From UHGV virus genome UHGV-1515682: a stretch of DNA of 40,877 nucleotides; one strand, 5' to 3'. A program made the translations under genes and the position numbers. Origin of the DNA: a virus. The notes under the pieces were generated by a model. That model worked only from the letters and a program-made list of their open reading frames with translations. It ran no database searches and was not told the origin of the DNA. This document shows positions 6,337 through 38,695 of the stretch, piece by piece (position 1 is the first letter of the stretch; each line of letters begins with the position of its first letter).

Positions 6337-6921
6337 TTATTGTTTGCTTTTTTCGTTCTGGTTGATGACAAATTCAATGTAACTTTCGATCTTTGCTTTC
6401 TCTGTTTCAGGTAACAATGCGTAGCGCGAGCGGTCATAGTTGATAGTTGCAGGGTCGTGCGGGTGAATCAGTAGTTCATATCCGTGACGCCCGAATGCAG
6501 ATGCAACATTCTCCAGGGTGGAAATGGAAACGCTGACCTCATTGTTTAACAGGCGGCTGATTGTCACCTGGGCTACGCCGGATGCGCGGTGAAGTTTTCC
6601 CTGTGTTGAAAGGTCGCGGCTTTCGCTCATCCAGCGTTCCAGGTTGTGAGCCGCCAGCTGGCCAATGTCGCTTGGGCCGACAGGCTGAAAACCTTCCTGA
6701 GAAAGCGAGCGATCGATATCAAGCCAGTTACGGGGTTTATTGGCGGCAGCTTCAATTTTTCGTGCAACCTGGTCGCCGATAACCTTCTTGCCAAGAGCCC
6801 AGCGGTTTACCAGATTTGCCTGAGTTCCAAGTTTTTCTGCCATCCGCGTCTGAACACCATTGAATTCACGGTCGATCAAGTCGTTGAGATTTTGCCTGCG
6901 GACGTCCTGGATACTTTTCAT
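6337..6921 (-). CDS. CI-like repressor with two HTH (XRE-type) regions and no recognisable S24 peptidase domain
   Basis: 194 aa; two XRE-like HTH stretches (…TRMAEKLGTQANLVNRWALGKK… and …ASGVAQVTISRLLNNEVSVSISTLENVA…); divergent from cro-like gene across an operator-rich intergenic region; no S24-like Ser/Lys motifs. Confidence 0.65.
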   Translation of the reverse strand: MKSIQDVRRQNLNDLIDREFNGVQTRMAEKLGTQANLVNRWALGKKVIGDQVARKIEAAANKPRNWLDIDRSLSQEGFQPVGPSDIGQLAAHNLERWMSESRDLSTQGKLHRASGVAQVTISRLLNNEVSVSISTLENVASAFGRHGYELLIHPHDPATINYDRSRYALLPETEKAKIESYIEFVINQNEKSKQ

Positions 6922-7075: not shown

Positions 7076-7306
7076 ATGAGCGATAACGGACATTTCGATT
7101 TCAAAAAGCACTGGCTTGCACTTACTCCGGATGAGCGTGAAGCCTTCGCACAGGAAGCCGGAACGACGAGTCACTATATCCAGACTCACTTAACAGGTAA
7201 GCGCAAAATGCCAGGTAAAGTATTGATGAATGGGCTTTTTAAAGCCTGTAAAACAAGACAATGGCTGCGCTCAAAAGCAGAACTGGCATACTTCTTCTAC
7301 TCATGA
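7076..7306 (+). CDS. Cro-like small HTH regulator (YdaS/Cro-type)
   Basis: 76 aa; first rightward gene opposite repressor; HTH-like segment AFAQEAGTTSHYIQTHLTGKRKMPG. Confidence 0.55.
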   Translation: MSDNGHFDFKKHWLALTPDEREAFAQEAGTTSHYIQTHLTGKRKMPGKVLMNGLFKACKTRQWLRSKAELAYFFYS

Positions 7307-7376: not shown

Positions 7377-7456
7377 TAAATAACCAAATCTGGTTGATAT
7401 TTTTTTTGTGTCAGCACAAAATAACCGTAATCCCAATACTAATAGCAGGGCTTACC

Positions 7457-7657
7457 ATGGAAATCATTACACGTATTGATGCCGCAAAGCGCGGACTTAA
7501 ACGCTACTACACCGGAAAAACATGTAAGCACGGACATGACAGTGAACGCTGGGTTTACAACGGACACTGTGTTGAGTGCACCATGGAATCAAACCGTCGT
7601 ATCAGGGCAGAGATTAAGCAGATCATGATTAATTCCTCCCCACAACATTCAAGCTGA
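7457..7657 (+). CDS. Hypothetical small zinc-binding protein (66 aa)
   Basis: C-x-H...C-x2-C ligand pattern (CKHGHDSERWVYNGHCVEC); start at internal ATG 7457. Confidence 0.45.
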   Translation: MEIITRIDAAKRGLKRYYTGKTCKHGHDSERWVYNGHCVECTMESNRRIRAEIKQIMINSSPQHSS

Positions 7658-12702: not shown

Positions 12703-12742
12703 GAGTAGATTATGCATGATGAATTTGATGGTTTTGAATACT

Positions 12743-12768
12743 GCCGCCAACTATGGCGGCTTTATTTT
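12743..12768 (+). terminator. Rho-independent terminator upstream of terminase genes (tR'-like)
   Basis: gccgcc-aactat-ggcggc hairpin followed by tttatttt. Confidence 0.6.
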
Positions 12769-12811
12769 GCATGGTACTATTACCACAACGGTAACTATTA
12801 CCACGGTGGTT

Positions 12812-13408
12812 ATGATGCCTGCTGAACCTAAAACCTATAAACGCAAATCAACGCAATTTAAGCCGCTCACAGCAATGCAGGAGGCTTATTGCCAGTCATA
12901 CATCAAAACGCCTGAAAACCAGACTCAGGCAGCGATTAACGCAGGATTCTCCCCAAATACAGCGGCAGTTAAAGCCAGTGTCATGATGCGCGATGAACGC
13001 ATTCAAAAACGGATTGCCGAGTTGATGGAGGAGCGCAACAAACGAATGCGCGTCAGTGCTGATTACGTTCTCATGCGCCTGGTGGAGATCGACCAGATGG
13101 ACGTGATCGACATCCTCAACGACGATGGGAGCCTTAAGCCAATCCGCGAGTGGCCGAAAATCTGGCGCACTACGCTTAGTGGCTTTGATCTGTCATCGAC
13201 CATCATGAACATGAACGAGGATTCGATAGAGACAATCCTCAAAAAAATTAAATGGCCTGACAAGGTGAAGAACCTCGAACTGATTGGTAAGCATGTTGAT
13301 GTCAACGCGTTCAAAGAACGTCTGGATGTTAATGTGAATGTGACAATTGCTGATCGCATAGCAGCAGCCAGGAAGCGACTCAAAGAACGTCAGGATGGTA
13401 ATCAGTGA
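12812..13408 (+). CDS. Terminase small subunit
   Basis: ~198 aa; motif QEAYCQSYIKTPENQTQAAINAGFSPNTAAVKASVMMR typical of phage small terminase; immediately upstream of and overlapping large terminase; start at ATG 12812. Confidence 0.65.
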   Translation: MMPAEPKTYKRKSTQFKPLTAMQEAYCQSYIKTPENQTQAAINAGFSPNTAAVKASVMMRDERIQKRIAELMEERNKRMRVSADYVLMRLVEIDQMDVIDILNDDGSLKPIREWPKIWRTTLSGFDLSSTIMNMNEDSIETILKKIKWPDKVKNLELIGKHVDVNAFKERLDVNVNVTIADRIAAARKRLKERQDGNQ

Positions 13409-29614: not shown

Positions 29615-32089
29615 ATGAGACAGGAATGTATACAAGCGGTTCAGCAGGCGGCGCAGCGCATGTTAACGGCGCGAGAAATACAGAACATTGAAGACCGCAT
29701 TTATCGAAATATGCGCTCCATTGCTCGTGATGACCCTATGTCGTGGCGACAACTTTCCGAATCAGAGCGGCTATATCGAGCAGCACAATTGGCATCTGAA
29801 GAATTACAGCGAGAAGCGGCATTAAAGAAACGTCGTGTGGCTCTCACTATAGCCGCGCGTCAGAGATTGGATAAATTTATCAATAGCTATCAAGGGGCTG
29901 ATGGGAAACTTGGCGCTCTTAACCGTACTATAGCTTTTAATGCAGACGGTAAATCTAATTTCCTCTCTGTTGAATCCAGAACAAAAGCCACCCGTGATTA
30001 TGCATTGAGTCAATTGCAGGAGGCATTCGAAGCAGTTGATCCTCGCTTTTTTGGTCTGTTTGAAGATGAAGCGGGCGTACGTGACCTGGTATATGAAATG
30101 CGGGGGCAAAATACTGGCAATGCTAAAGCAAGAAACGGTGCTAAGGCGTGGAGAGAAGTTACAGAGCTGCTGCGCCGCCGGTTTAATGATGCTGGTGGGG
30201 ACATTGGCTATCTCGAAAACTGGGGGATCCCTCAACATCATTCTATGGAAAAGGTTGGGGCAGTATCAAAGGATAAGTGGGTTAGCGATGTTATAGGTAA
30301 GCTGGATCGCAAATATTATATCCGAGCCGATGGACAACTGATGAACGATGCCGAGTTGTCTTCATTTCTTGGAGAGGCTTATAACACGATCGCTACTGGT
30401 GGGCTGAATAAGCTTACTGATACCGGAATGCGAATTTCCGGCGCACGTGCTAACCGTGGTAATGCATCACGACAGATACATTTCAAAGATGCAGATTCCT
30501 ATCTGCAATATCAGCAACTTTATGGCGATCGCTCTCTATGGGAAATCATGGTCGGTCACCTGGAAGGTATCAGTAAAGATATTGCACTGGTGGAAACATA
30601 TGGCCCAAACCCCGATCATGTTTTCCGCTCTCTTCTTGATCAGGTGAAGGCAGAAACGGCAACAGCTAACCCGAGTAAAACCGGTAAAGTCGAGCGGCTG
30701 GCGAACAACACAGAGAATCTGTACAACTTTATTTCCGGAAAGACACAGCCTGTAGCGAATCCGCACATCGCGCGATGGTCTGACAATATCCGCAACTGGC
30801 TGGTTGCCAGCAGACTCGGATCCGCGTTGCTGTCATCGTTCTCTGATCTTGGAACCATGTATCTGTCTGCGAAGGTTACCAACCTTCCAATGAACCAGTT
30901 ATTCCGCAACCAGCTTGAAGCTATGGACCCAACGAACCGTACAGAACTTGCGCGGGCGCGCCGCGCTGGTCTGGCGATGGAATCTCTACTTGGCAGCGTT
31001 AACCGCTGGGCGATGGATAATATGGGGCCGTCAGTGTCTCGTTGGGCGGCAACGGCGGTAATGCGTGCCAGTGGGCTTACAGCATGGTCAGATGCGCACA
31101 AGCGCGCCTATGGCGTAACCATGATGGGAAGCCTGGGAGAAGTAGTGTCACGGACACCAGACCTTCGTAGCCTCGATGACTCTGATTTTCGTATCCTGAA
31201 AAGCAAAGGGATTACTGACATAGACTGGAGCGTATGGAAGCTGGCGAAACAGGAGGACTGGGGGAACGGTAATAATACGATGCTGACACCGGAAAGCATT
31301 ATGCGTATCCCTGATTCAGCAGTTAAACATCTTGGTGAGCCTGAACGCGTGAAATTTGAGGCAATGCGTAAACTGCTCGGTGCCGTAACTGAAGAAGTTG
31401 ATATGGCTGTTATTACACCGGGAGCACGTGAGCAACTGATAACCGGTTCTGGTATTCAGCGTGGAACATGGAAAGGTGAATTAACGAGAAGTGTTTTCCT
31501 GTTTAAATCGTTCCCTATCTCGGTTGTTATGCGTCACTGGTCACGCGCTATGGGTATGCCGTCTGCTGGTGGGCGTGCGGCATATATTGCGACGTTTATT
31601 GCCAGTACGACCATTCTTGGCGCTTTGTCGCAGCAACTTAACGACCTTGCGTCTGGTCGTAATCCTCGAGAGATGACAGGAGAAGATGCCGCAAAATTCT
31701 GGCTTGGTGCTCTACTGAAAGGTGGTGGTCTTGGCCTTTACGGTGACTTTTTATTGTCAGATCACACTAGGTACGGAAGCGGCGCGCTGGCGTCGATGCT
31801 TGGCCCGGTAGCTGGTCTGGTTGATGACGTAGTGAAGATTGCTCAGGGCATACCGTTAAATGCTGTGGAAGGGAAGAGTGAGCAGACTGGTGGTGATCTG
31901 GTGAAGCTGGGGAAAGGTTTGATGCCTGGTGCGAATCTCTGGTACTTGAAGGCGGCTCTCGATCACATGATCTTTAACCAGATGCAGGAGTATTTTTCAC
32001 CAGGCTATTTGCGTAAAATGGAGCAACGTTCGAAGAAAGAGTTTAACCAGACATACTGGTGGCGACCACAGGATGTCACTCCGCAATAA
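29615..32089 (+). CDS. Large internal virion/ejection protein
   Basis: 824 aa; C-terminal Gly-rich hydrophobic region. Confidence 0.55.
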   Translation: MRQECIQAVQQAAQRMLTAREIQNIEDRIYRNMRSIARDDPMSWRQLSESERLYRAAQLASEELQREAALKKRRVALTIAARQRLDKFINSYQGADGKLGALNRTIAFNADGKSNFLSVESRTKATRDYALSQLQEAFEAVDPRFFGLFEDEAGVRDLVYEMRGQNTGNAKARNGAKAWREVTELLRRRFNDAGGDIGYLENWGIPQHHSMEKVGAVSKDKWVSDVIGKLDRKYYIRADGQLMNDAELSSFLGEAYNTIATGGLNKLTDTGMRISGARANRGNASRQIHFKDADSYLQYQQLYGDRSLWEIMVGHLEGISKDIALVETYGPNPDHVFRSLLDQVKAETATANPSKTGKVERLANNTENLYNFISGKTQPVANPHIARWSDNIRNWLVASRLGSALLSSFSDLGTMYLSAKVTNLPMNQLFRNQLEAMDPTNRTELARARRAGLAMESLLGSVNRWAMDNMGPSVSRWAATAVMRASGLTAWSDAHKRAYGVTMMGSLGEVVSRTPDLRSLDDSDFRILKSKGITDIDWSVWKLAKQEDWGNGNNTMLTPESIMRIPDSAVKHLGEPERVKFEAMRKLLGAVTEEVDMAVITPGAREQLITGSGIQRGTWKGELTRSVFLFKSFPISVVMRHWSRAMGMPSAGGRAAYIATFIASTTILGALSQQLNDLASGRNPREMTGEDAAKFWLGALLKGGGLGLYGDFLLSDHTRYGSGALASMLGPVAGLVDDVVKIAQGIPLNAVEGKSEQTGGDLVKLGKGLMPGANLWYLKAALDHMIFNQMQEYFSPGYLRKMEQRSKKEFNQTYWWRPQDVTPQ

Positions 32090-32980: not shown

Positions 32981-33613
32981 TTAATGCAGTTTATCTTTGC
33001 TTATAACCAGTAGTCTGTGGGTATGCACATCTTTATCACTGCCCCAACAGAAATCAGCCCACTGGCTATAGAAATCATCCCATGATGTCATGAAGCTAAG
33101 AGGTCTATCTTCTTCAGAGCCATCTGAAACGTATACATTATATCCTGGGGTGTTTATAGCCCAAGAAATCATTCTTTCCCAGAATCTTCTCCCATCGATT
33201 GTTTGTTGCTCATCAGATACAACGATCGCATATTGCTCTAGGAAGAACTGAAAAAAAATCTGAGGCAAACCATGAACAGCACGGTCATGAATAACATTAG
33301 GCGTACGCCATACCATGATCTGCGTACATGTTCTTTTGGCTTCGACGATATCTTCCCGAAAGATTAACTTAACCGCATACACCGTTTCTGGAGTATCGCT
33401 GGTAGTAATCATTCTGTAATGATCGCCATTACAAGATTTTACAAGGCGATAACCATAAGGTGTTGTGAATCCCGGAAGAACGAAGTCAACCACACCTTTC
33501 GCTAAGTAGCTTTCGGTGTGACTAGTGTTCTTCTCAGACATGTTCAGTTTTCTATCGAAATCTGCTTCTGGGATAATGTATGGCATCGCTTTTCTTGTTG
33601 TATTTGTTCTCAT
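32981..33613 (-). CDS. Cargo protein of unknown function (210 aa)
   Basis: AT-rich ORF with own terminator and operator-like site 60 bp upstream; no recognisable motif. Confidence 0.55.
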   Translation of the reverse strand: MRTNTTRKAMPYIIPEADFDRKLNMSEKNTSHTESYLAKGVVDFVLPGFTTPYGYRLVKSCNGDHYRMITTSDTPETVYAVKLIFREDIVEAKRTCTQIMVWRTPNVIHDRAVHGLPQIFFQFFLEQYAIVVSDEQQTIDGRRFWERMISWAINTPGYNVYVSDGSEEDRPLSFMTSWDDFYSQWADFCWGSDKDVHTHRLLVISKDKLH

Positions 33614-33672: not shown

Positions 33673-33687
33673 TTACCCTTGAGGTAA
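33673..33687. promoter_or_regulatory. Dyad operator-like site ttacccttgaggtaa
   Basis: Perfect TTACC-N5-GGTAA upstream of 33613 gene start. Confidence 0.5.
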
Positions 33688-33758: not shown

Positions 33759-34445
33759 TCAGAAGAACCCTGCCTTGTCGTTGATGTACTCCGCGTGCGT
33801 CTGGATATCACGCAGGCATTTGCTCACACCAACGATGTAACAGAACATGGTGGTCAGCTCCGCCGCCGCGCCCGATACGTCGTGCCCGTCTTCCTGTAAC
33901 TGGTTCAGCAGATTCATCAGCAGTGAGTTCTCCGTCAGGCCGAGAACACCAGACGGCGAATGAATCAGGCTACGGTAGCCTGGCTTCAGTGGGGCACTGT
34001 AGGTTTTGTTCTCTATCTTCATCGCCTGCATTACTGCTGACGCCGTGGCGTTGGCTACCTGGTCGGCAACCATCTTTATGCGTTCTTCCTGCGGGAGCGA
34101 GTTTTTAATGTAACTTCCGGTGCGGCGGATCTGAGGAAGAACCTCACCTGTAACCCATTTACGAAAGCGGTATGGGATAGTGCCTGGTGTCACCGCATCG
34201 CGGCAGCGGAGGATCAGTGTGTAGAGGCCTGACTCGTTGATAATATTGGTTTCGCCTTGACGGCCTAAGTTAAATTTAGCCCTTTCATCATCATCAAGAG
34301 ATTTTATTGACATAGTGGGGTTTGTCAGTTGAAGAGCTTTAATAACGTCTTTGGCAACAAACCAAGGATTTCCATCAATAACAATGGCTCGAATGGTTGC
34401 TTCTGATTCAAAATGAAAAACAGATGGGGTTACGTTAGCAGTCAT
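33759..34445 (-). CDS. Bro-N domain antirepressor-like protein
   Basis: 228 aa from ATG 34445; N-terminal Bro-N signature (FHFESEATIRAIVIDGNPWFVAKDV…GLYTLILR…RFRKWVTGEVLPQIRRTGSY); C-terminal ~70 aa homologous to the product of 35591-35848. Confidence 0.75.
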   Translation of the reverse strand: MTANVTPSVFHFESEATIRAIVIDGNPWFVAKDVIKALQLTNPTMSIKSLDDDERAKFNLGRQGETNIINESGLYTLILRCRDAVTPGTIPYRFRKWVTGEVLPQIRRTGSYIKNSLPQEERIKMVADQVANATASAVMQAMKIENKTYSAPLKPGYRSLIHSPSGVLGLTENSLLMNLLNQLQEDGHDVSGAAAELTTMFCYIVGVSKCLRDIQTHAEYINDKAGFF

Positions 34446-34721
34446 AGTGATCACCTTTGTAGTTAGGTTAATCACCACTACCGACGCCAATCGGTTGGTG
34501 GTGAACTGTGCAGGGTTGGCGTAACCGGCTACAAAGGACCCGGCGCACCTTTCGGTGCCCCCACACAGCCCACCATAGAATAGGTGCGCTTTACACATAA
34601 AAAAACCGCTTATGCGGCATATGTGCCTCTGTAGTAATCCGGGACGCCAATCCCGGCACTGGATTTTGCCAGTGCCCGATTACTATGGCACAAGAGGAGT
34701 GCGATGTAAATTTACCGTAAA

Positions 34722-34736
34722 GGTAATGATAAGCGC
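34722..34736. promoter_or_regulatory. Dyad operator-like site ttaccgtaaaggtaa
   Basis: Perfect TTACC-N5-GGTAA in divergent region between ant and 34840 gene. Confidence 0.5.
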
Positions 34737-34804
34737 GAAGAAACATTAAAATCAACCGTATTTGGTTGATTGCGTTTAACGCTTGATCACCTGAAAGCAA
34801 GATA

Positions 34805-34819
34805 TTACCTTTAAGGTAA
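34805..34819. promoter_or_regulatory. Dyad operator-like site ttacctttaaggtaa
   Basis: Perfect TTACC-N5-GGTAA 21 bp upstream of ATG 34840. Confidence 0.5.
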
Positions 34820-34839
34820 TGTTATTGTGAGGAAAAGCA

Positions 34840-35568
34840 ATGGAAGTTTTCTGGATAGTTGTTGGTGTGGTTGCGGTGATTATTTACGTTATCAACCAGA
34901 ACAAGACTAAGATCTCTGATCGTACGGTCGTTAATCATAACAAAACGATAAAGACCGAAGATGGGGAGATAACGATTAATCGTACACAGGTGATAGAACA
35001 CACCTCTACTCAGTTTCAAAAAACTGGAGGTAATGCGCCTAATATTTCCGCACCTCCTGCTTATGATAGTGCGGTAATCCAGACATATTATAAACAGCAG
35101 GAGTTAGCAAAAGAGAGGCAACTGATTCAGCCAAAGCCGTTTACAGCTGAGATTCCACCTGGAGTGTCAACGCGTCCGGCATATCATGGAAGATTCCCTG
35201 GTGATGACATATCGTCTCAGTCATCTAAAAAAGCACCTCAGGCAATATCAGAGCCAGCAAGAATACCTTCTGTATCGCCGCCAAAAGAAGAATCAGCTAA
35301 CAGAGTTTCAAGTGGTAGCAAGCAGTGCTTGCGATGCAGAATAAACCTTCCATATGAAAAATTCAGGAAATCGTCAAAAAATCCAGATGGATTGACTAAA
35401 TGGTGTGCAAGGTGTCTCGATGGCCCAAAGAATACACGCCATATGAAGTGGTGCCCAATTTGTAATGTCCGCAGAAAACGAACCAGCTTTTACCCTAATA
35501 ATCAAAATGCGGACGGCTTAATGGCATGGTGCAAAACGTGCTGGGATGAGCACAAAGCGAAACGATAG
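34840..35568 (+). CDS. Membrane-anchored protein with two C-terminal zinc-ribbon-like repeats
   Basis: 242 aa; N-terminal TM helix; repeated C-x2-C…DG…W-C-x2-C units. Confidence 0.55.
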   Translation: MEVFWIVVGVVAVIIYVINQNKTKISDRTVVNHNKTIKTEDGEITINRTQVIEHTSTQFQKTGGNAPNISAPPAYDSAVIQTYYKQQELAKERQLIQPKPFTAEIPPGVSTRPAYHGRFPGDDISSQSSKKAPQAISEPARIPSVSPPKEESANRVSSGSKQCLRCRINLPYEKFRKSSKNPDGLTKWCARCLDGPKNTRHMKWCPICNVRRKRTSFYPNNQNADGLMAWCKTCWDEHKAKR

Positions 35569-35584
35569 GCCGCTCTTGCGGCCT
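35567..35584. terminator. Hairpin between convergent genes
   Basis: aggccgc-tctt-gcggcct stem-loop overlapping stop of 34840-35568. Confidence 0.45.
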
Positions 35585-35590
35585 TTAAAT

Positions 35591-35848
35591 TTACCGGGTT
35601 TGTTTTCGTAATTGTTCGGCACAATAGTCGAGATGTGTTTGCAGATCCCGCATAGACATCTGTGAGCTGGTGACGTAGTTAATCAGTGCAGTCAGTTCGG
35701 CAAGTGGGCCATCGACATTAAATCCATCCTTATCGAGATCCCGGAGTAATTTCATCAAGTGCGATCCCTCCACCAGTGACCTGACGCCTCCCGGCGTGTG
35801 AATCCTTTCGGTAAATCCGTCTTCCAGTGGATAGTGATACTGCTGCAT
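35591..35848 (-). CDS. Small antirepressor-like protein behind a LexA box
   Basis: 85 aa from ATG 35848 (MQQYHYPLEDGF…) with GGAGAAG RBS; homologous to C-terminal domain of Bro-N protein; near-consensus LexA box 20 bp upstream. Confidence 0.6.
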   Translation of the reverse strand: MQQYHYPLEDGFTERIHTPGGVRSLVEGSHLMKLLRDLDKDGFNVDGPLAELTALINYVTSSQMSMRDLQTHLDYCAEQLRKQTR

Positions 35849-35867
35849 CTTATCTTCTCCATGCAAT

Positions 35868-36043: not shown

Positions 36044-38695
36044 ATGACGGTCTCAACCGAAGTTGACCACAACGAATACACTGGTAACGGAGCTACGACA
36101 TCATTTCCGTATACCTTCCGTATTTTCAAAAAATCCGACCTGGTTGTTCAGGTGTCTGACCTGAACGGGAACGTAACAGAATTGGTTCTGGATACTGACT
36201 ACACAGTAACCAATGCTGGAGGATATAATGGCGGTAATGTAATTCTGTCGAAGGCGTTGGCTAACGGTTATCATATTTCTATATCACGAGAACTCCCGGT
36301 TACGCAGGATACTGATTTGCGTAATCAGGGTAAGTTCTTCGCTGAGGTACATGAAGACGCGTTCGATAAACTGACAATGCTTATTCAAAAGTGTTTTTCA
36401 TGGATGAGGTTAGCACTTATAAAACCAAGCATTCTGGCTAACTATTATGATGCAAAAAATAATAAGATATCAAATCTAGCAAATGCCACTGACAGAAACG
36501 ATGCTGTCAATAAAGGTTATGTTGATGATCTTTTTACTGGAGGTGTAACGCCTACACCTAACAGCGCTAAAAACGATATTTTTACAAATCACCAAAGAAA
36601 GATTGTAGCTACGATGCCGCTTCTTTTTCCTGAATATGATGCGATTATGGCTGCTAACCCGTCAGCAACTTATATGTATCCTCAAGGATTCTGCGTTAGC
36701 GAAGATTTGATATACATCACTTATCCATTTGAGCCTAAACAGACGAATAATGTCGTCGCAGTATTTAACATATCTGGTATTTATCAAGGTTATTTCTATG
36801 TTCAGGCTGGCGGCCCAGGCTTCGCTGCTGAAGGAATCGTGGTTACGTCAGACTATGGCCCCAAAAAAATGTTTGTTGGTCACACAAACGGAATACTGCG
36901 TGAATTTAATATGGAGGGGGCATTATACGGAAGCAATCTGCCTCTTGTACAAAACCATGATGTTGGATTATTCAACCAGTTCAGCTACAGAAGAGGTATA
37001 TGGCTCGTTGAGCAGAATGCGCCAGAAGTAGGACAGAAAATCACAAGAACTGTACTTGCAGTGTTCGACAGTGGTTTCAATCGCCTGTCAACTATAACGC
37101 TGCCGTTACATGATGTTGGGTATGTAACTAAAAGCACCTCACCTTATGCGCCTTATTTCAACAAGCGTCAGGGTATTGCGGTAGGTGATAACTACTTTGT
37201 CTGTGGCTATGGCGGCTTCATAGCTGATGGGGCAGGAAGCGCAGGATATAACGAATATCAGGGCAGCAAAGTTTTTAACCCTGACGGTACAAAGCGAACT
37301 GAATCAATGCTTCATCCTCAGGCCATGATGGATTTAATGAAAGCCGCAGGATTGAACGTCACTCGCATAGAAAATGAAGGCGTTTGTGTTTCTCAGGATG
37401 GAAAATCCATTTATTCACTTTACATTCATCAGGAAAGAACTGGCTCTGAACCTTACAATTCAGGTTTGGTTATTTTCGAAGATTTCTCCACTGATAAAGA
37501 TGCTATCGATTTTACACCTGCATCCAGGCTTTACCGCGGATTTGATATCGATCACGCGAGCATTGGGGTATATCCCCGTAGTGCGAAGGGGATTGTTAAC
37601 CCTGTAGATGGTACGTTGTTCACTAACATGACTGAAATTCTTCGCTATATGCAGGAGATGAGTCAGAAGGCATTTAATTTTTACACAGGGACTGTCAGCA
37701 TTGCTGATATATCTGGCGTGGCAATCCCTTCCAGCACATATGTTGAAATACTGAATGCGAATAATCAGACTTTTATAGTCAACTATTATTCATCTGATAG
37801 TGGTATTAGTTATTTGGTTGCAACTAATCCTTCTGGTGACTTTGTATTTGTGCGCCAGCGACCGGCACAGTGGGCATCTAACTTAACCATTCAGCAAAAC
37901 GCAGATCCTGATACAAACCAATTAAACCGCATCACTGCATCATCATATGCCGGTGCAACTACAAACTCTCAGAAAATATTGGTCCTTGACCAGCAGGCTA
38001 CAGCTAGCGCAAATAGCTTGGTATTGGGCGGTAGTTCTTCTGTGTTTAGGTCTGCCACCACGGTGGATATTGCATGCAACAGCGACCCGACAGCATTGGG
38101 AGGAACCATACGCTGGCGGTTTTATGATACAGGTCTTCGCCCGTTTGCTGACAATACCTATAATTTTGGTCAGGCATCGTTTCGTATTAAAGACGCCTAC
38201 TTTGCAAATGCCCCAACCGTTTCATCAGATGCCACGCTGAAAACCAATCCCGAGGCAATATCAGATTTAAGTGAAATGCTTTCTTCTGATAGAGACAGCA
38301 TTCTTGATGCCTGGGGCGATATTTCTGTTGTGGCGTATCGATGGCTCGACGCTATATCCATGAAGGGCGATGGTGCCAGATGGCATTTTGGCGTCATGGC
38401 TCAGCAGGTAAGGGATGTATTCTTGGCGCACGGAATTGATGGAACCAGATTTGGCCTTCTTTGCTATGACGAGTGGGACGATATTTTTGAGCCGGTAATC
38501 GCGACTAAAGAGATTACCGATACGTCTGGTGAGTTGGTCACCGTCGAATATGACACCGGAGAACAGAGGCTGGTTAAAAAAGCGGGTAGTTCATGGGGTA
38601 TACGGCCTGACCAGTGCGCTTGGCTTGAGGCTGCATATCAGCGCCGTCGATGCGATCGTATTGAAGAGCGACTCGAACTATTGGAATCAAAATAA
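36044..38695 (+). CDS. Tailspike/tail fibre with C-terminal intramolecular chaperone (S74-like) domain
   Basis: 883 aa; conserved tail-fibre N-terminus; C-terminal SDATLKTN…HFGVMAQQV…GLLCYDEWDD resembles the autoproteolytic chaperone domain; GGAG RBS. Confidence 0.75.
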   Translation: MTVSTEVDHNEYTGNGATTSFPYTFRIFKKSDLVVQVSDLNGNVTELVLDTDYTVTNAGGYNGGNVILSKALANGYHISISRELPVTQDTDLRNQGKFFAEVHEDAFDKLTMLIQKCFSWMRLALIKPSILANYYDAKNNKISNLANATDRNDAVNKGYVDDLFTGGVTPTPNSAKNDIFTNHQRKIVATMPLLFPEYDAIMAANPSATYMYPQGFCVSEDLIYITYPFEPKQTNNVVAVFNISGIYQGYFYVQAGGPGFAAEGIVVTSDYGPKKMFVGHTNGILREFNMEGALYGSNLPLVQNHDVGLFNQFSYRRGIWLVEQNAPEVGQKITRTVLAVFDSGFNRLSTITLPLHDVGYVTKSTSPYAPYFNKRQGIAVGDNYFVCGYGGFIADGAGSAGYNEYQGSKVFNPDGTKRTESMLHPQAMMDLMKAAGLNVTRIENEGVCVSQDGKSIYSLYIHQERTGSEPYNSGLVIFEDFSTDKDAIDFTPASRLYRGFDIDHASIGVYPRSAKGIVNPVDGTLFTNMTEILRYMQEMSQKAFNFYTGTVSIADISGVAIPSSTYVEILNANNQTFIVNYYSSDSGISYLVATNPSGDFVFVRQRPAQWASNLTIQQNADPDTNQLNRITASSYAGATTNSQKILVLDQQATASANSLVLGGSSSVFRSATTVDIACNSDPTALGGTIRWRFYDTGLRPFADNTYNFGQASFRIKDAYFANAPTVSSDATLKTNPEAISDLSEMLSSDRDSILDAWGDISVVAYRWLDAISMKGDGARWHFGVMAQQVRDVFLAHGIDGTRFGLLCYDEWDDIFEPVIATKEITDTSGELVTVEYDTGEQRLVKKAGSSWGIRPDQCAWLEAAYQRRRCDRIEERLELLESK

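Follow-up and report, generated by a model that had tools for sequence, protein, structure and literature searches.

What does a temperate phage gain from a gene for a small membrane-anchored protein with two zinc fingers? This question is raised by an open reading frame in UHGV virus genome UHGV-1515682, the 40,877-nucleotide stretch of DNA analyzed here (the window):

34840..35568, + strand: coding sequence of 242 aa with an ATG start; putative membrane-anchored protein with two zinc fingers, PHROG 6762

The open reading frame is preceded by a Shine-Dalgarno sequence, GAGG, at 34829-34832. The only whole-protein family found for its product is PHROG 6762, which is matched over the full length (E = 5.7e-150, residues 1-242 on profile positions 1-242 of 242) and carries the annotation 'unknown function'. 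A sequence-only reading of this DNA had been unable to assign the protein to a known phage function, and our searches lead to the same place: no characterized family covers the whole protein, the defence catalogue searched (PADLOC-DB v2.0.0) gives no family match at E <= 1, PADLOC and NCBIfam return nothing meaningful for the protein or its three neighbours, and the one informative Pfam match is below threshold (see below). Literature searches on Stc1 in combination with zinc ribbon and phage, and on PF12898, returned no papers, and the TL-2011b literature does not mention the gene.

The protein has 33 homologous clusters, and the family amounts to approximately 45 representative clusters at 50% identity. 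Its hosts include Enterobacterales (Escherichia, Serratia, Providencia, Edwardsiella), Acinetobacter, Pasteurellaceae (Haemophilus, Aggregatibacter) and marine Gammaproteobacteria. The gene is present in 129 of 5426 complete E. coli genomes (2.4%), where it is annotated as 'hypothetical'.

Domain architecture and predicted topology

The protein can be divided into the following segments:

34846..34899, + strand: N-terminal transmembrane helix, aa 3-20 (AlphaFold2 model and hydropathy); predicted N-out, C-in
34915..35004, + strand: conserved Thr-rich beta-hairpin beside the membrane, aa 26-55, with a 'TIKTEDGE' turn
35011..35310, + strand: variable Pro/Ser/Ala-rich linker, aa 58-157; mostly disordered, judging by composition, length variation and low pLDDT
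35320..35421, + strand: zinc finger 1, aa 161-194 (C163, C166, C189, C192); predicted Stc1-like treble clef
35446..35547, + strand: zinc finger 2, aa 203-236 (C205, C208, C231, C234); internal repeat with invariant Cys/Trp

The sequence-only reading had described a single N-terminal transmembrane helix, a Pro/Ser-rich linker and two tandem C-x2-C…DG…W-C-x2-C repeats, and all three are recovered in our analysis. The sole hydrophobic segment is aa 1-22 (mean Kyte-Doolittle 2.0-2.3), and AlphaFold2 models a helix at aa 3-20 with a pLDDT of about 90. Lysine and arginine are more numerous after the helix than before it in 47 of the 48 family members, and the tail that precedes the helix has a median length of 2 residues; because nearly all members thus obey the positive-inside rule, the fingers are predicted to lie in the cytoplasm. 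The hairpin that follows (strands 26-39 and 42-55) is modelled with a pLDDT of only about 50, and is conserved in the alignments of 31 close homologues and 48 representatives. A profile of the N-terminal module (transmembrane helix and hairpin) retrieved only truncated fragments of the same protein and no other effector fusions, and so gives no evidence that the anchor is a module common to other proteins. The linker contains 14% Pro, 12% Ser and 11% Ala, has a pLDDT below 50 with the exception of a helix at 77-93, and differs widely in length between aligned homologues.

The two repeats align without gaps over 34 residues with a score of 68, a value reached by none of 1000 shuffles (22 +/- 5, maximum 48). 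In the AlphaFold2 model the finger module (pLDDT 88-95, above 90 in zinc finger 1) consists of strands 160-162, 169-171, 175-177 and 185-189 and a helix at 190-194, and is repeated at 202-241. Each repeat is modelled in the order of a knuckle CxxC, a beta-hairpin and a second CxxC at the N-terminus of a helix. The earlier description of a double zinc ribbon is thus retained as to its two Cys4 modules and revised as to the fold, which in the model is a treble clef (Stc1-like) rather than a classical zinc ribbon; both modules are predicted to bind zinc. The finger domain is strongly basic, with a net charge of +14 (+7 to +18 in the family, mean +13.5), and zinc finger 2 carries a conserved basic patch, R211-R214.

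Conservation and selection

All eight cysteines, together with W188 and W230, are invariant in the 31 close homologues and in the 48 representatives, which reach down to 20-30% identity, so that the cysteines on which the earlier description relied are indeed a constant feature of the family. D183/G184 and D225/G226 are invariant or nearly so in the same sets. A comparison of 38 distinct E. coli alleles finds synonymous variants at 23 codons of the zinc domain and amino-acid variants at only 3, while the linker has synonymous variants at 20 codons and amino-acid variants at 42 of 103; this pattern of substitutions indicates strong purifying selection on the zinc domain. The possibility of a pseudogene was considered because the region is annotated only as a misc_feature in TL-2011b, and was dropped, as the open reading frame is intact there (242 aa) and in 38 of 38 E. 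coli alleles.

Kinship of the zinc fingers

Zinc finger 1 matches the Pfam Stc1 family (PF12898) at aa 160-193 with 21.1 bits (E = 4.7e-4), below the gathering cut-off of 24.8 bits, and the same family is matched at E <= 0.01 by 18 of the 48 representatives (best 1.8e-6). The fingers are best described as a divergent relative of Stc1, and this, with the treble-clef model, is what domain and structure prediction add to the earlier description. A profile built from the fingers retrieves 3223 representative proteins. Of the 95 soluble relatives, 52 have a Pfam Stc1 match (best 2.8e-18), 32 contain HNH-type domains and 11 contain Endonuclease_7, while others carry GIY-YIG-like, Bro-N or KilA-N domains. 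Further relatives include an SF1 helicase, a protein that combines a transmembrane segment, four fingers and an HNH-like domain, and one protein in which the same double module is fused to a DnaJ J-domain. The finger repeat, then, recurs in viral and bacterial HNH, endonuclease VII, GIY-YIG and helicase proteins. The Stc1-like fingers of phage and giant-virus HNH/endonuclease VII proteins share the signature K-x-C-x2-C ... F ... DG ... (W)C-K-x-C with those described here, and the structural Cys4 sites of Hpy99I and PacI appear to resemble them in sequence and fold. In contrast to the HNH/endonuclease VII relatives, the 242-aa protein has exactly two repeats, a membrane anchor and no catalytic domain.

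Foldseek with the full-length model returned nothing from the PDB below E = 1, which can be attributed to the poor handling of small zinc domains and to the disordered linker that dilutes the query. Searches of PDB sequences with phmmer and hmmsearch gave only chance-level RING matches and a weak match to the PacI N-terminus (E = 0.08), and the fold searches gave no OB-fold matches.

One possible reading would make the protein an active beta-beta-alpha-Me (HNH-type) nuclease, bound to the membrane and cutting DNA as it comes in, in effect a miniature SNIPE. We regard this as scarcely credible and dropped it: the protein has no HNH or Endonuclease_7 match in Pfam, the family alignments show neither a His nor an Asn at an invariant or nearly invariant position (H201 and N198 are conserved only within Enterobacterales), and such similarity in fold as there may be is accounted for by the structural Cys4 sites of HNH-type nucleases. 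The residue types that are conserved across the family are Cys, Trp, Gly, Asp, Phe, Lys, Arg and Leu. Since catalytic His and Asn are not conserved and the net charge is +14, the fingers look like a non-catalytic nucleic-acid binder.

A second possibility, suggested by the profile matches, is counter-defence: restriction alleviation of the Lar type, by which the protein would shield the phage from host restriction. PHROG matches to zinc finger 2 (aa 197-242) fall in endonuclease VII, Lar-like and HNH groups, and among them is PHROG 5558, 'Lar-like restriction alleviation protein' (E = 2.7e-9; aa 201-241 align to positions 7-47 of a profile of 130); Pfam Lar_restr_allev (PF14354) is also matched by 2 of the 95 soluble relatives. 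This match, however, spans a single 41-residue finger, nuclease-annotated PHROGs score equally well or better, PF14354 is missing for the 242-aa protein even at E up to 10, and a membrane anchor has no obvious part in restriction alleviation. A Lar-type function is thus quite improbable, if less so than an active nuclease.

An accessory cassette at two recurrent positions

Comparison with phage phiV10 places the gene within a discrete insertion:

34717..35590, no strand: accessory cassette relative to phiV10, in which 41 bp stand at this place (blastn)

The gene is missing from phiV10 and from many collinear phages, phiV10-like phages match the window in two pieces, and the orientation of the cassette differs among phages. 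In the window, the gene for an 824-aa ejection-type protein (29615..32089) is followed by cargo, the 242-aa gene and the tailspike gene (36044..38695), in keeping with the cargo island proposed by the sequence-only reading, which was also right about the divergent orientation of the gene relative to its Bro-N neighbour. Two further ejection proteins have 837 and 600 aa. With a putative promoter and terminator of its own and presence or absence between collinear phages, the cassette has, as far as can be read from the DNA, the hallmarks of a moron.

Two genomic positions recur in the family. The first is that of the window: in 10 epsilon15-like loci, the window included, the stretch from the last ejection-protein gene to the tailspike contains the gene, which can point either way. 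On the P22 map, sieA occupies the position between the ejection-protein genes and the tailspike/immI region. One plasmid clone of P22 contains sieA, orf59a and mnt, and gene 9 is placed downstream of gene 16 (PMC10883804). The synteny with sieA is positional only, and none of the present results connects the two proteins in sequence. The second position is next to the repressor: in at least 8 other gammaproteobacterial prophage lineages the homologue lies 15-55 nt downstream of a CI/S24 repressor gene on the same strand (often 15-18 nt), or tail-to-tail with it. The locus downstream of cI, which houses RexAB and BstA, is a known defence position (PMC8585504). In the window itself the 242-aa gene is not adjacent to a repressor gene.

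Putative promoter, operator and terminator

The following elements can be recognized around the gene:

34712..34726, no strand: second operator-like copy, TTACCGTAAAGGTAA, in the shared intergenic region; straddles the phiV10 homology breakpoint at 34716
34750..34771, no strand: inverted repeat AATCAACC-N6-GGTTGATT, close to the cassette's left edge; resembles a terminator on the minus strand
34783..34811, + strand: putative sigma-70 promoter, -35 TTGATC (34783-34788), 17-nt spacer, -10 TACCTT (34806-34811), from sequence reading
34805..34819, no strand: operator-like palindrome TTACCTTTAAGGTAA, overlapping the putative -10 and +1
35567..35584, no strand: GC-rich hairpin AGGCCGC-TCTT-GCGGCCT, which takes in the final two bases of the stop codon

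The putative promoter was missed by a consensus promoter scan because its -10 is weak; homologues that are 61-63% identical have TTGACC-17-TACCTT upstream in the same layout. The hairpin is likely to be a bidirectional terminator, and Serratia and Providencia homologues have a similar hairpin downstream. A palindrome, TGTGACATGTCACA, upstream of the homologues' promoters was considered as a CRP site and dropped, as its spacing is 4 and not 6.

The operator-like site previously noted before the gene (34805-34819) turns out to be one of 11 perfect copies of TTACC-N5-GGTAA in the window, against 0.01 expected, and the same palindrome stands at the equivalent place before homologues in other prophages. 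At the position of TTACCGTAAAGGTAA, phiV10 also has a copy (L002 5109), and among the E. coli alleles the arms of this site are conserved and its spacer is variable. Whatever the function of the gene, the 11-copy operator set offers a handle on genome silencing in epsilon15/phiV10-like phages. An activating (class II) role of the palindrome was dropped: with its centre just 28 nt before the conserved ATG, it must overlap either the -10/+1 or the leader. As the phage's own operator lies across the putative -10, binding of the 194-aa repressor (6337..6921) to this site would keep the gene off in the lysogen. A Cro-like protein is encoded at 7076..7306.

Such a promoter, overlapped by an operator, suggests expression only after derepression or infection, and would suit a helper in the lytic cycle: anchored in the membrane, it would hold the phage's own DNA or replication complex there and so organize replication or shield the genome. 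The phi29 protein p16.7 offers a precedent, as it shares the N-terminal transmembrane helix and the C-terminal nucleic-acid-binding domain (PMC4974454). Yet the gene is dispensable, as its absence from phiV10 and many collinear phages indicates, it is located in cargo regions and not in replication modules, and its position immediately behind cI, on the same strand, in several lineages implies that it is expressed in the lysogen. We therefore consider a tether for the phage's own DNA unlikely.

The surroundings of the gene can also be read in favour of a regulator of lysis-lysogeny or host takeover, in which the fingers would capture a protein (a repressor, a protease, a chaperone client or an FtsH-type factor) and either sequester it at the membrane or present it there. 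The gene is always found in immunity-type surroundings, with either cI or Ant-like Bro-N/KilA-N genes as neighbours; no role has been assigned to the conserved hairpin next to the membrane, and one relative joins the double module to a J-domain. Stc1-type and other treble-clef fingers, moreover, frequently mediate protein-protein contacts. Against this, the fusion partners of the module are overwhelmingly nucleic-acid enzymes, the charge of +14 suits nucleic acid, and no candidate target gene consistently co-occurs with the gene in the homologue neighbourhoods examined. The probability that we give to such a regulator is low, and the same as for the tether.

A possible role in superinfection exclusion or abortive infection

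Taken together, the architecture, conservation, domain kinship, cassette structure and synteny of the gene lead us to propose, tentatively and at somewhat short of an even chance, that it encodes a single-gene superinfection-exclusion or abortive-infection protein. As a stand-alone prophage accessory gene (moron), it would give rise to a product that inserts into the inner membrane by its single N-terminal helix, with only two residues outside, and displays two strongly basic, non-catalytic Stc1-like fingers in the cytoplasm on a flexible linker. On the cytoplasmic side of the membrane, the most likely ligand of the fingers would be nucleic acid, or else a DNA-delivery complex, and the DNA of a competing phage would be disturbed on entry or shortly after. 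The logic would be that of AbiP and PdpSau, which are membrane-anchored nucleic-acid binders, and of SNIPE, minus its nuclease domain. A more specific version, which we consider doubtful, is that the family is a new and widespread class of nuclease-free exclusion proteins in Gammaproteobacteria, whose tethered fingers, of the homing-endonuclease type, catch the leading end of injected DNA, or the delivery complex, where it emerges on the cytoplasmic side of the inner membrane and stall entry.

Several observations weigh against an exclusion role. Treble-clef fingers can serve protein-protein contacts, as those of eukaryotic Stc1 do, and the fingers could thus contact proteins instead of DNA; one relative carries a J-domain. 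Neither a partner gene nor a nuclease domain accounts for how bound DNA would be neutralized, and PADLOC gives no match. The operator over the putative -10, in the window and in related enterobacterial prophages, would, if occupied by the repressor, be compatible with exclusion during the lytic phase but not with prophage defence of the classical kind, and would be at odds with the cI-operon arrangement of other lineages.

Prophage cargo genes are a main reservoir of unrecognized phage-phage competition and defence functions, and this family sits at both of the classic exclusion/defence positions of temperate phages, the sieA site and the cI-downstream site. It is missing from PADLOC-DB v2.0.0, the single defence catalogue covered by the searches, and its annotation is no more than 'hypothetical'. 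If exclusion without a nuclease were true, a DNA-binding module of homing endonucleases would have been repurposed as a membrane gatekeeper. As a small single gene with mutational handles (the transmembrane helix, the eight cysteines and the basic patch), it is cheap to test.

Comparison with known systems

Among known phage membrane proteins, phi29 p16.7 is an early integral membrane protein with an N-terminal transmembrane helix and a C-terminal DNA-binding domain (PMC4974454). It has another DNA-binding fold and serves the phage's own protein-primed replication, whereas the 242-aa gene is dispensable cargo of temperate phages. RexAB of lambda and BstA of BTP1 resemble the family in locus, directly beside cI in at least 8 lineages (PMC8585504), and BstA also carries a DNA-binding domain (KilA-N). 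Neither is homologous to the 242-aa protein, however; RexAB has two components, and BstA is soluble and comes with a self-immunity element.

P22 SieA is likewise an accessory inner-membrane protein of a prophage, encoded at the same relative position in a short-tailed phage. It has 162-164 aa and three predicted transmembrane helices (PMC10883804), and by its description differs in lacking zinc fingers, in having three transmembrane helices instead of one and in length (approximately 163 versus 242 aa). SieA is expressed from the prophage, whereas the putative promoter of the 242-aa gene bears a phage operator. SieA also acts on ejection proteins from within the membrane, unlike the stalled entry considered above.

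Similar in architecture are two membrane-anchored abortive-infection proteins, the nucleic-acid-binding AbiP of Lactococcus (PMC13064643) and PdpSau of an S. aureus prophage (PMC10127798). Both are encoded by a single gene on a mobile element or prophage, and in both a single N-terminal transmembrane anchor is followed by a positively charged domain in the cytoplasm with known or predicted affinity for nucleic acid. In contrast to the predicted tandem zinc fingers described here, their cytoplasmic domain is OB-fold-like; they are Gram-positive systems with no detected sequence similarity to the 242-aa protein, and PdpSau is predicted to be N-in rather than N-out.

A further counterpart is SNIPE (PD-lambda-1), in which an N-out transmembrane segment is joined to a cytoplasmic DNA binder and a nuclease that cleaves phage DNA during injection (PMC13190303). 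The likeness lies in the N-out single-pass helix, predicted in our case, in the basic cytoplasmic domain that would be held where phage DNA enters, and in the N-terminal and linker parts, which are variable among homologues. SNIPE cleaves the DNA, whereas in the more specific version above the fingers of the 242-aa protein would stall its entry; it contains DUF4041 and a GIY-YIG nuclease that is essential for defence, and Pfam and PADLOC show neither in the 242-aa protein. In other proteins, this type of finger accompanies HNH, endonuclease VII and GIY-YIG nucleases.

A conserved family of membrane-anchored proteins

The window is an ε15/phiV10-like E. coli prophage, and its nearest phage record is TL-2011b (96% identity across the gene region), where the region is annotated as a misc_feature alone, yet the ORF is intact. 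The gene, 34840..35568 (+), stands as the sequence-only reading gave it, with an ATG start and a product of 242 aa; a Shine-Dalgarno sequence (GAGG) lies 7 nt 5' of the ATG. Of the 5426 complete E. coli genomes, 129 carry it, on the chromosome every time and annotated in each case as "hypothetical protein". The ORF is intact in 38/38 distinct E. coli alleles, among which the zinc domain carries synonymous variants in 23 codons and amino-acid variants in 3, and the linker synonymous variants in 20 and amino-acid variants in 42. The ORF is a real gene under selection.

A search of 5.8 billion proteins returned 33 homologue clusters, none with a Pfam domain; those named by organism are Enterobacterales without exception. 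The transmembrane (TM) helix, the hairpin and all eight cysteines, whose conservation had been put forward as a check, are kept across this set, and the linker differs in length and sequence. The family is broader than this search indicated. A profile of the C-terminal domain finds 3223 matches (E ≤ 1e-3) among 1.84 billion representative proteins, and about 45 of the best 150 share the whole-protein architecture at a length of 180-240 aa: an "ME" start and a TM helix, then N-x-N-K/R and a hairpin rich in Thr, and finally two fingers behind a variable linker. In an alignment of 48 family representatives, with identity down to 20-30%, C163, C166, W188, C189, C192, C205, C208, W230, C231 and C234 are invariant, and F175, D183, G184, K203, R212, D225, G226 and L227 nearly so. 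Genome scanning places members in Edwardsiella, Acinetobacter, Marinobacterium, Oceanobacter, Aggregatibacter, Haemophilus, Pseudoalteromonas and Neptunomonas.

Domain organization and topology

Parts of the 242-aa protein, with the AlphaFold2 model
aa 1-22, sole hydrophobic segment; helix at aa 3-20, pLDDT about 90
aa 26-55, β-hairpin, low confidence
aa 58-157, linker, 14% Pro, 12% Ser and 11% Ala
aa 77-93, short helix, with a disordered stretch after it
aa 160-242, compact C-terminal domain, pLDDT above 90

The proposed single N-terminal TM helix and Pro/Ser-rich linker are thus borne out. The two tandem C-x2-C…DG…W-C-x2-C repeats also hold, aligning without gaps across 34 residues with a score of 68 (22±5 in 1000 shuffles, none of which reached 68). 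Each repeat runs in the order knuckle, β-hairpin, helix, and is therefore a treble-clef finger. The net charge of the zinc domain is +14 (+7 to +18 in the family, mean +13.5).

Family members begin with a median tail of 2 residues, mostly "ME" or "MD", and K+R average 0.1 ahead of the helix versus 3.7 within 15 residues past it; 47 of the 48 have the charge distribution that the positive-inside rule expects of an N-out, C-in protein. Reduced, metal-binding cysteines suit the cytoplasm, and a cytoplasmic C-terminal domain fits the eight predicted here. A membrane-held basic domain could also serve as a tether for the phage's own DNA, in the manner of the phi29 membrane DNA-binding protein p16.7 (PMC4974454), a role that we consider unlikely.

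Relationships of the zinc modules

The zinc module belongs to a known, little-studied domain type. The protein matches Pfam Stc1 (PF12898) below threshold (21.1 bits; cut-off 24.8), and 18 of the 48 representatives match it at E ≤ 0.01. Relatives outside the family, recovered with the C-terminal-domain profile, contain 2-10 tandem copies of the module; among 95 of them scanned, Stc1 occurs in 52 (best E 2.8e-18), HNH-type domains in 32 and Endonuclease_7 in 11, and others carry GIY-YIG-like, Bro-N or KilA-N domains. BFVD matches are to HNH, endonuclease VII, "ββα-Me" and "Stc1 domain" proteins from phages and giant viruses.

PHROG profiles matching the modules are annotated as endonuclease VII, HNH endonuclease and Lar-like, and two endonuclease VII profiles align through their N-terminal parts. 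The Lar-like annotation would point to Lar-like anti-restriction, which we regard as improbable. The nuclease annotations raise the reading of an active mini-nuclease; across the 48-representative alignment neither His nor Asn is conserved, so that a catalytic ββα-Me site is unsupported and this reading is very improbable. We infer that the modules are non-catalytic, with a predicted nucleic-acid-binding function.

Several relatives carry the module in other contexts: at the C-terminus of an SF1 helicase (P0105; AAA_11/AAA_12, double module), joined as a double module to a DnaJ J-domain (P0144), and as four modules between a hydrophobic N-terminal helix and an HNH-like C-terminus (P0097), possibly a membrane-anchored HNH nuclease. 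In the window, an 87-aa ORF (7394..7657, +) between the Cro-like gene and a replication gene has the motif C-x2-G-H...C-x2-C (TCKHGH...HCVEC) and is another small putative zinc protein.

The cassette and its regulation

Features of the gene region
32981..33613 (−), cargo ORF, 210 aa, PHROG 1349 (unknown function), own operator copy at 33673
33759..34448 (−), Bro-N/Ant-like antirepressor gene
34600..34716, backbone common to phiV10, Tyrion and others, with a minus-strand terminator-like hairpin at 34618-34605
34717..35590, cassette in place of 41 bp of phiV10
34750-34771, inverted repeat
34783-34811, promoter-like TTGATC-17 nt-TACCTT
34805-34819, operator-like site, overlapping the putative −10 and +1
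35567-35584, GC-rich hairpin overlapping the last two stop-codon bases, probably a bidirectional terminator
35591..35851 (−), 86-aa gene, ε15 gp19-like (PHROG 450), immediately upstream of the tailspike

The gene is divergent from the Bro-N gene, as had been described, and convergent with the 86-aa gene. The product of the latter shares 41% identity (E 2e-20) with the antirepressor's C-terminal domain, and appears from this to be effectively a free-standing antirepressor C-domain. The 210-aa cargo product has no Pfam, PADLOC or NCBIfam match; TL-2011b has other cargo at this place, among it a YafO-family toxin and Arc/Ant genes.

The operator-like site ascribed to the gene is confirmed as one of 11 perfect copies of a 15-bp palindrome, TTACC-N5-GGTAA (0.01 expected).

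Operator copies in the window
Perfect: 6203, 6265, 6977, 9284, 9346, 12780, 16316, 33673, 34712, 34805, 35925
One mismatch (five): 136, 7025, 7362, 12798, 15700

Among the perfect copies, 12780 alone falls within a gene-sized ORF (12716..13408), and the other ten do not. Several copies are paired at a distance of 18-93 bp. There are copies to either side of the 194-aa HTH repressor gene (6337..6921, −) and the Cro-like ORF (7076..7306, +), and copy 35925 sits upstream of the 86-aa gene. The palindrome looks like a candidate genome-wide operator set of an ε15/phiV10-like phage, reminiscent of mycobacteriophage stoperators. In phiV10 (L002 5090..5135) an inverted repeat of much greater length surrounds one copy, GGAGTGCTTATAT-TTACC...GGTAA-ATATAAGCACTCC, pointing to a single element, downstream of the gp19-like gene, that would serve as terminator and operator alike.

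Homologues with 61-63% identity in prophage contigs (protein-level relatives of that identity come from Superficieibacter, Enterobacter, Citrobacter and Salmonella) have the same TTGACC-17-TACCTT layout and palindrome; the Serratia homologue has an upstream copy with one mismatch, and that of Providencia has TTAACC-N5-GGTTAA in the corresponding position. Since this placement is kept, the gene appears to be part of a putative phage repressor/Cro regulon in ε15-like phages. A role for the protein itself in regulating lysis-lysogeny or host takeover, by binding another protein, seems to us unlikely.

The 61-63% identical homologues (L076-L082) also have a perfect 14-bp palindrome, TGTGACATGTCACA, directly upstream of the −35 and about 50-75 nt 5' of the ATG. 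Its spacing is wrong for a CRP site; it is possibly a further site of regulation.

Genomic positions in other phages

Clustering of Pfam-annotated neighbour genes in 28 diverse loci reveals two recurrent positions. In 10 ε15-like loci, the window included, the gene has the last large ejection-type protein gene on one side and the tailspike on the other, often with antirepressor-like genes beside it and in no constant orientation to the structural operon. This is the position of sieA in P22, whose map we take to be 16–sieA–orf59a–mnt–arc–ant–9.

In at least eight further lineages the homologue adjoins a CI-type repressor gene (HTH_3 + Peptidase_S24).

Arrangement relative to cI
Same strand, 15-55 nt downstream: L012, L014, L019, L093/094/097, L103
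One small gene between: L013, L101
Tail-to-tail: L015, L018, L102

Two prophage defence systems, RexAB and BstA, are documented at the locus downstream of cI (PMC8585504). Edwardsiella-type prophages have the homologue near the integrase gene; in Buttiauxella it shares a small island with a CI-type repressor and resolvase genes. No consistent partner gene occurs among the 28 loci, and the gene therefore behaves as a single-gene unit. In Marinobacterium-type prophages, cI and the homologue are followed by a 217-aa gene that overlaps the homologue's 3' end (L014 6654..7307; L103 5654..6307); the L014 product, the one copy scanned, is a staphylococcal-nuclease (SNase) + Excalibur protein, which would make a cI-homologue-nuclease operon in L014.

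Proposed function and comparison with known systems

Because the architecture is that of a known phage-interference design, we propose that the single TM anchor would hold the basic nucleic-acid-binding domain at the cytoplasmic membrane face, where it might bind incoming phage DNA or the DNA-delivery complex and so block or abort infection. This reading is possible, somewhat short of probable; what the alternatives already weighed leave over falls to something else. Its main internal difficulty is timing. With an operator covering its promoter, the gene is predicted to be silent in the lysogen, and any exclusion would then act in lytic growth or just after infection, resembling early-expressed exclusion proteins; the cI-operon arrangement of other lineages predicts lysogenic expression. 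Each is compatible with exclusion.

The whole protein sits in an existing, unannotated phage orthologous group, PHROG 6762; PADLOC has no match for it, and our literature search found no paper mentioning this zinc module in phages. The protein is a solid experimental candidate, short of a demonstrated new system. PdpSau is a prophage-encoded analogue of the membrane-anchored design (PMC10127798). SNIPE, N-out and single-pass, pairs a cytoplasmic DNA-binding DUF4041 with a GIY-YIG nuclease; it cleaves phage DNA during injection, and its confinement to the membrane averts self-damage (PMC13190303). If the functional hypothesis is true, the protein would be a new variant of this membrane-anchored nucleic-acid-binding exclusion/Abi design, with a different fold from the known designs and without a nuclease.
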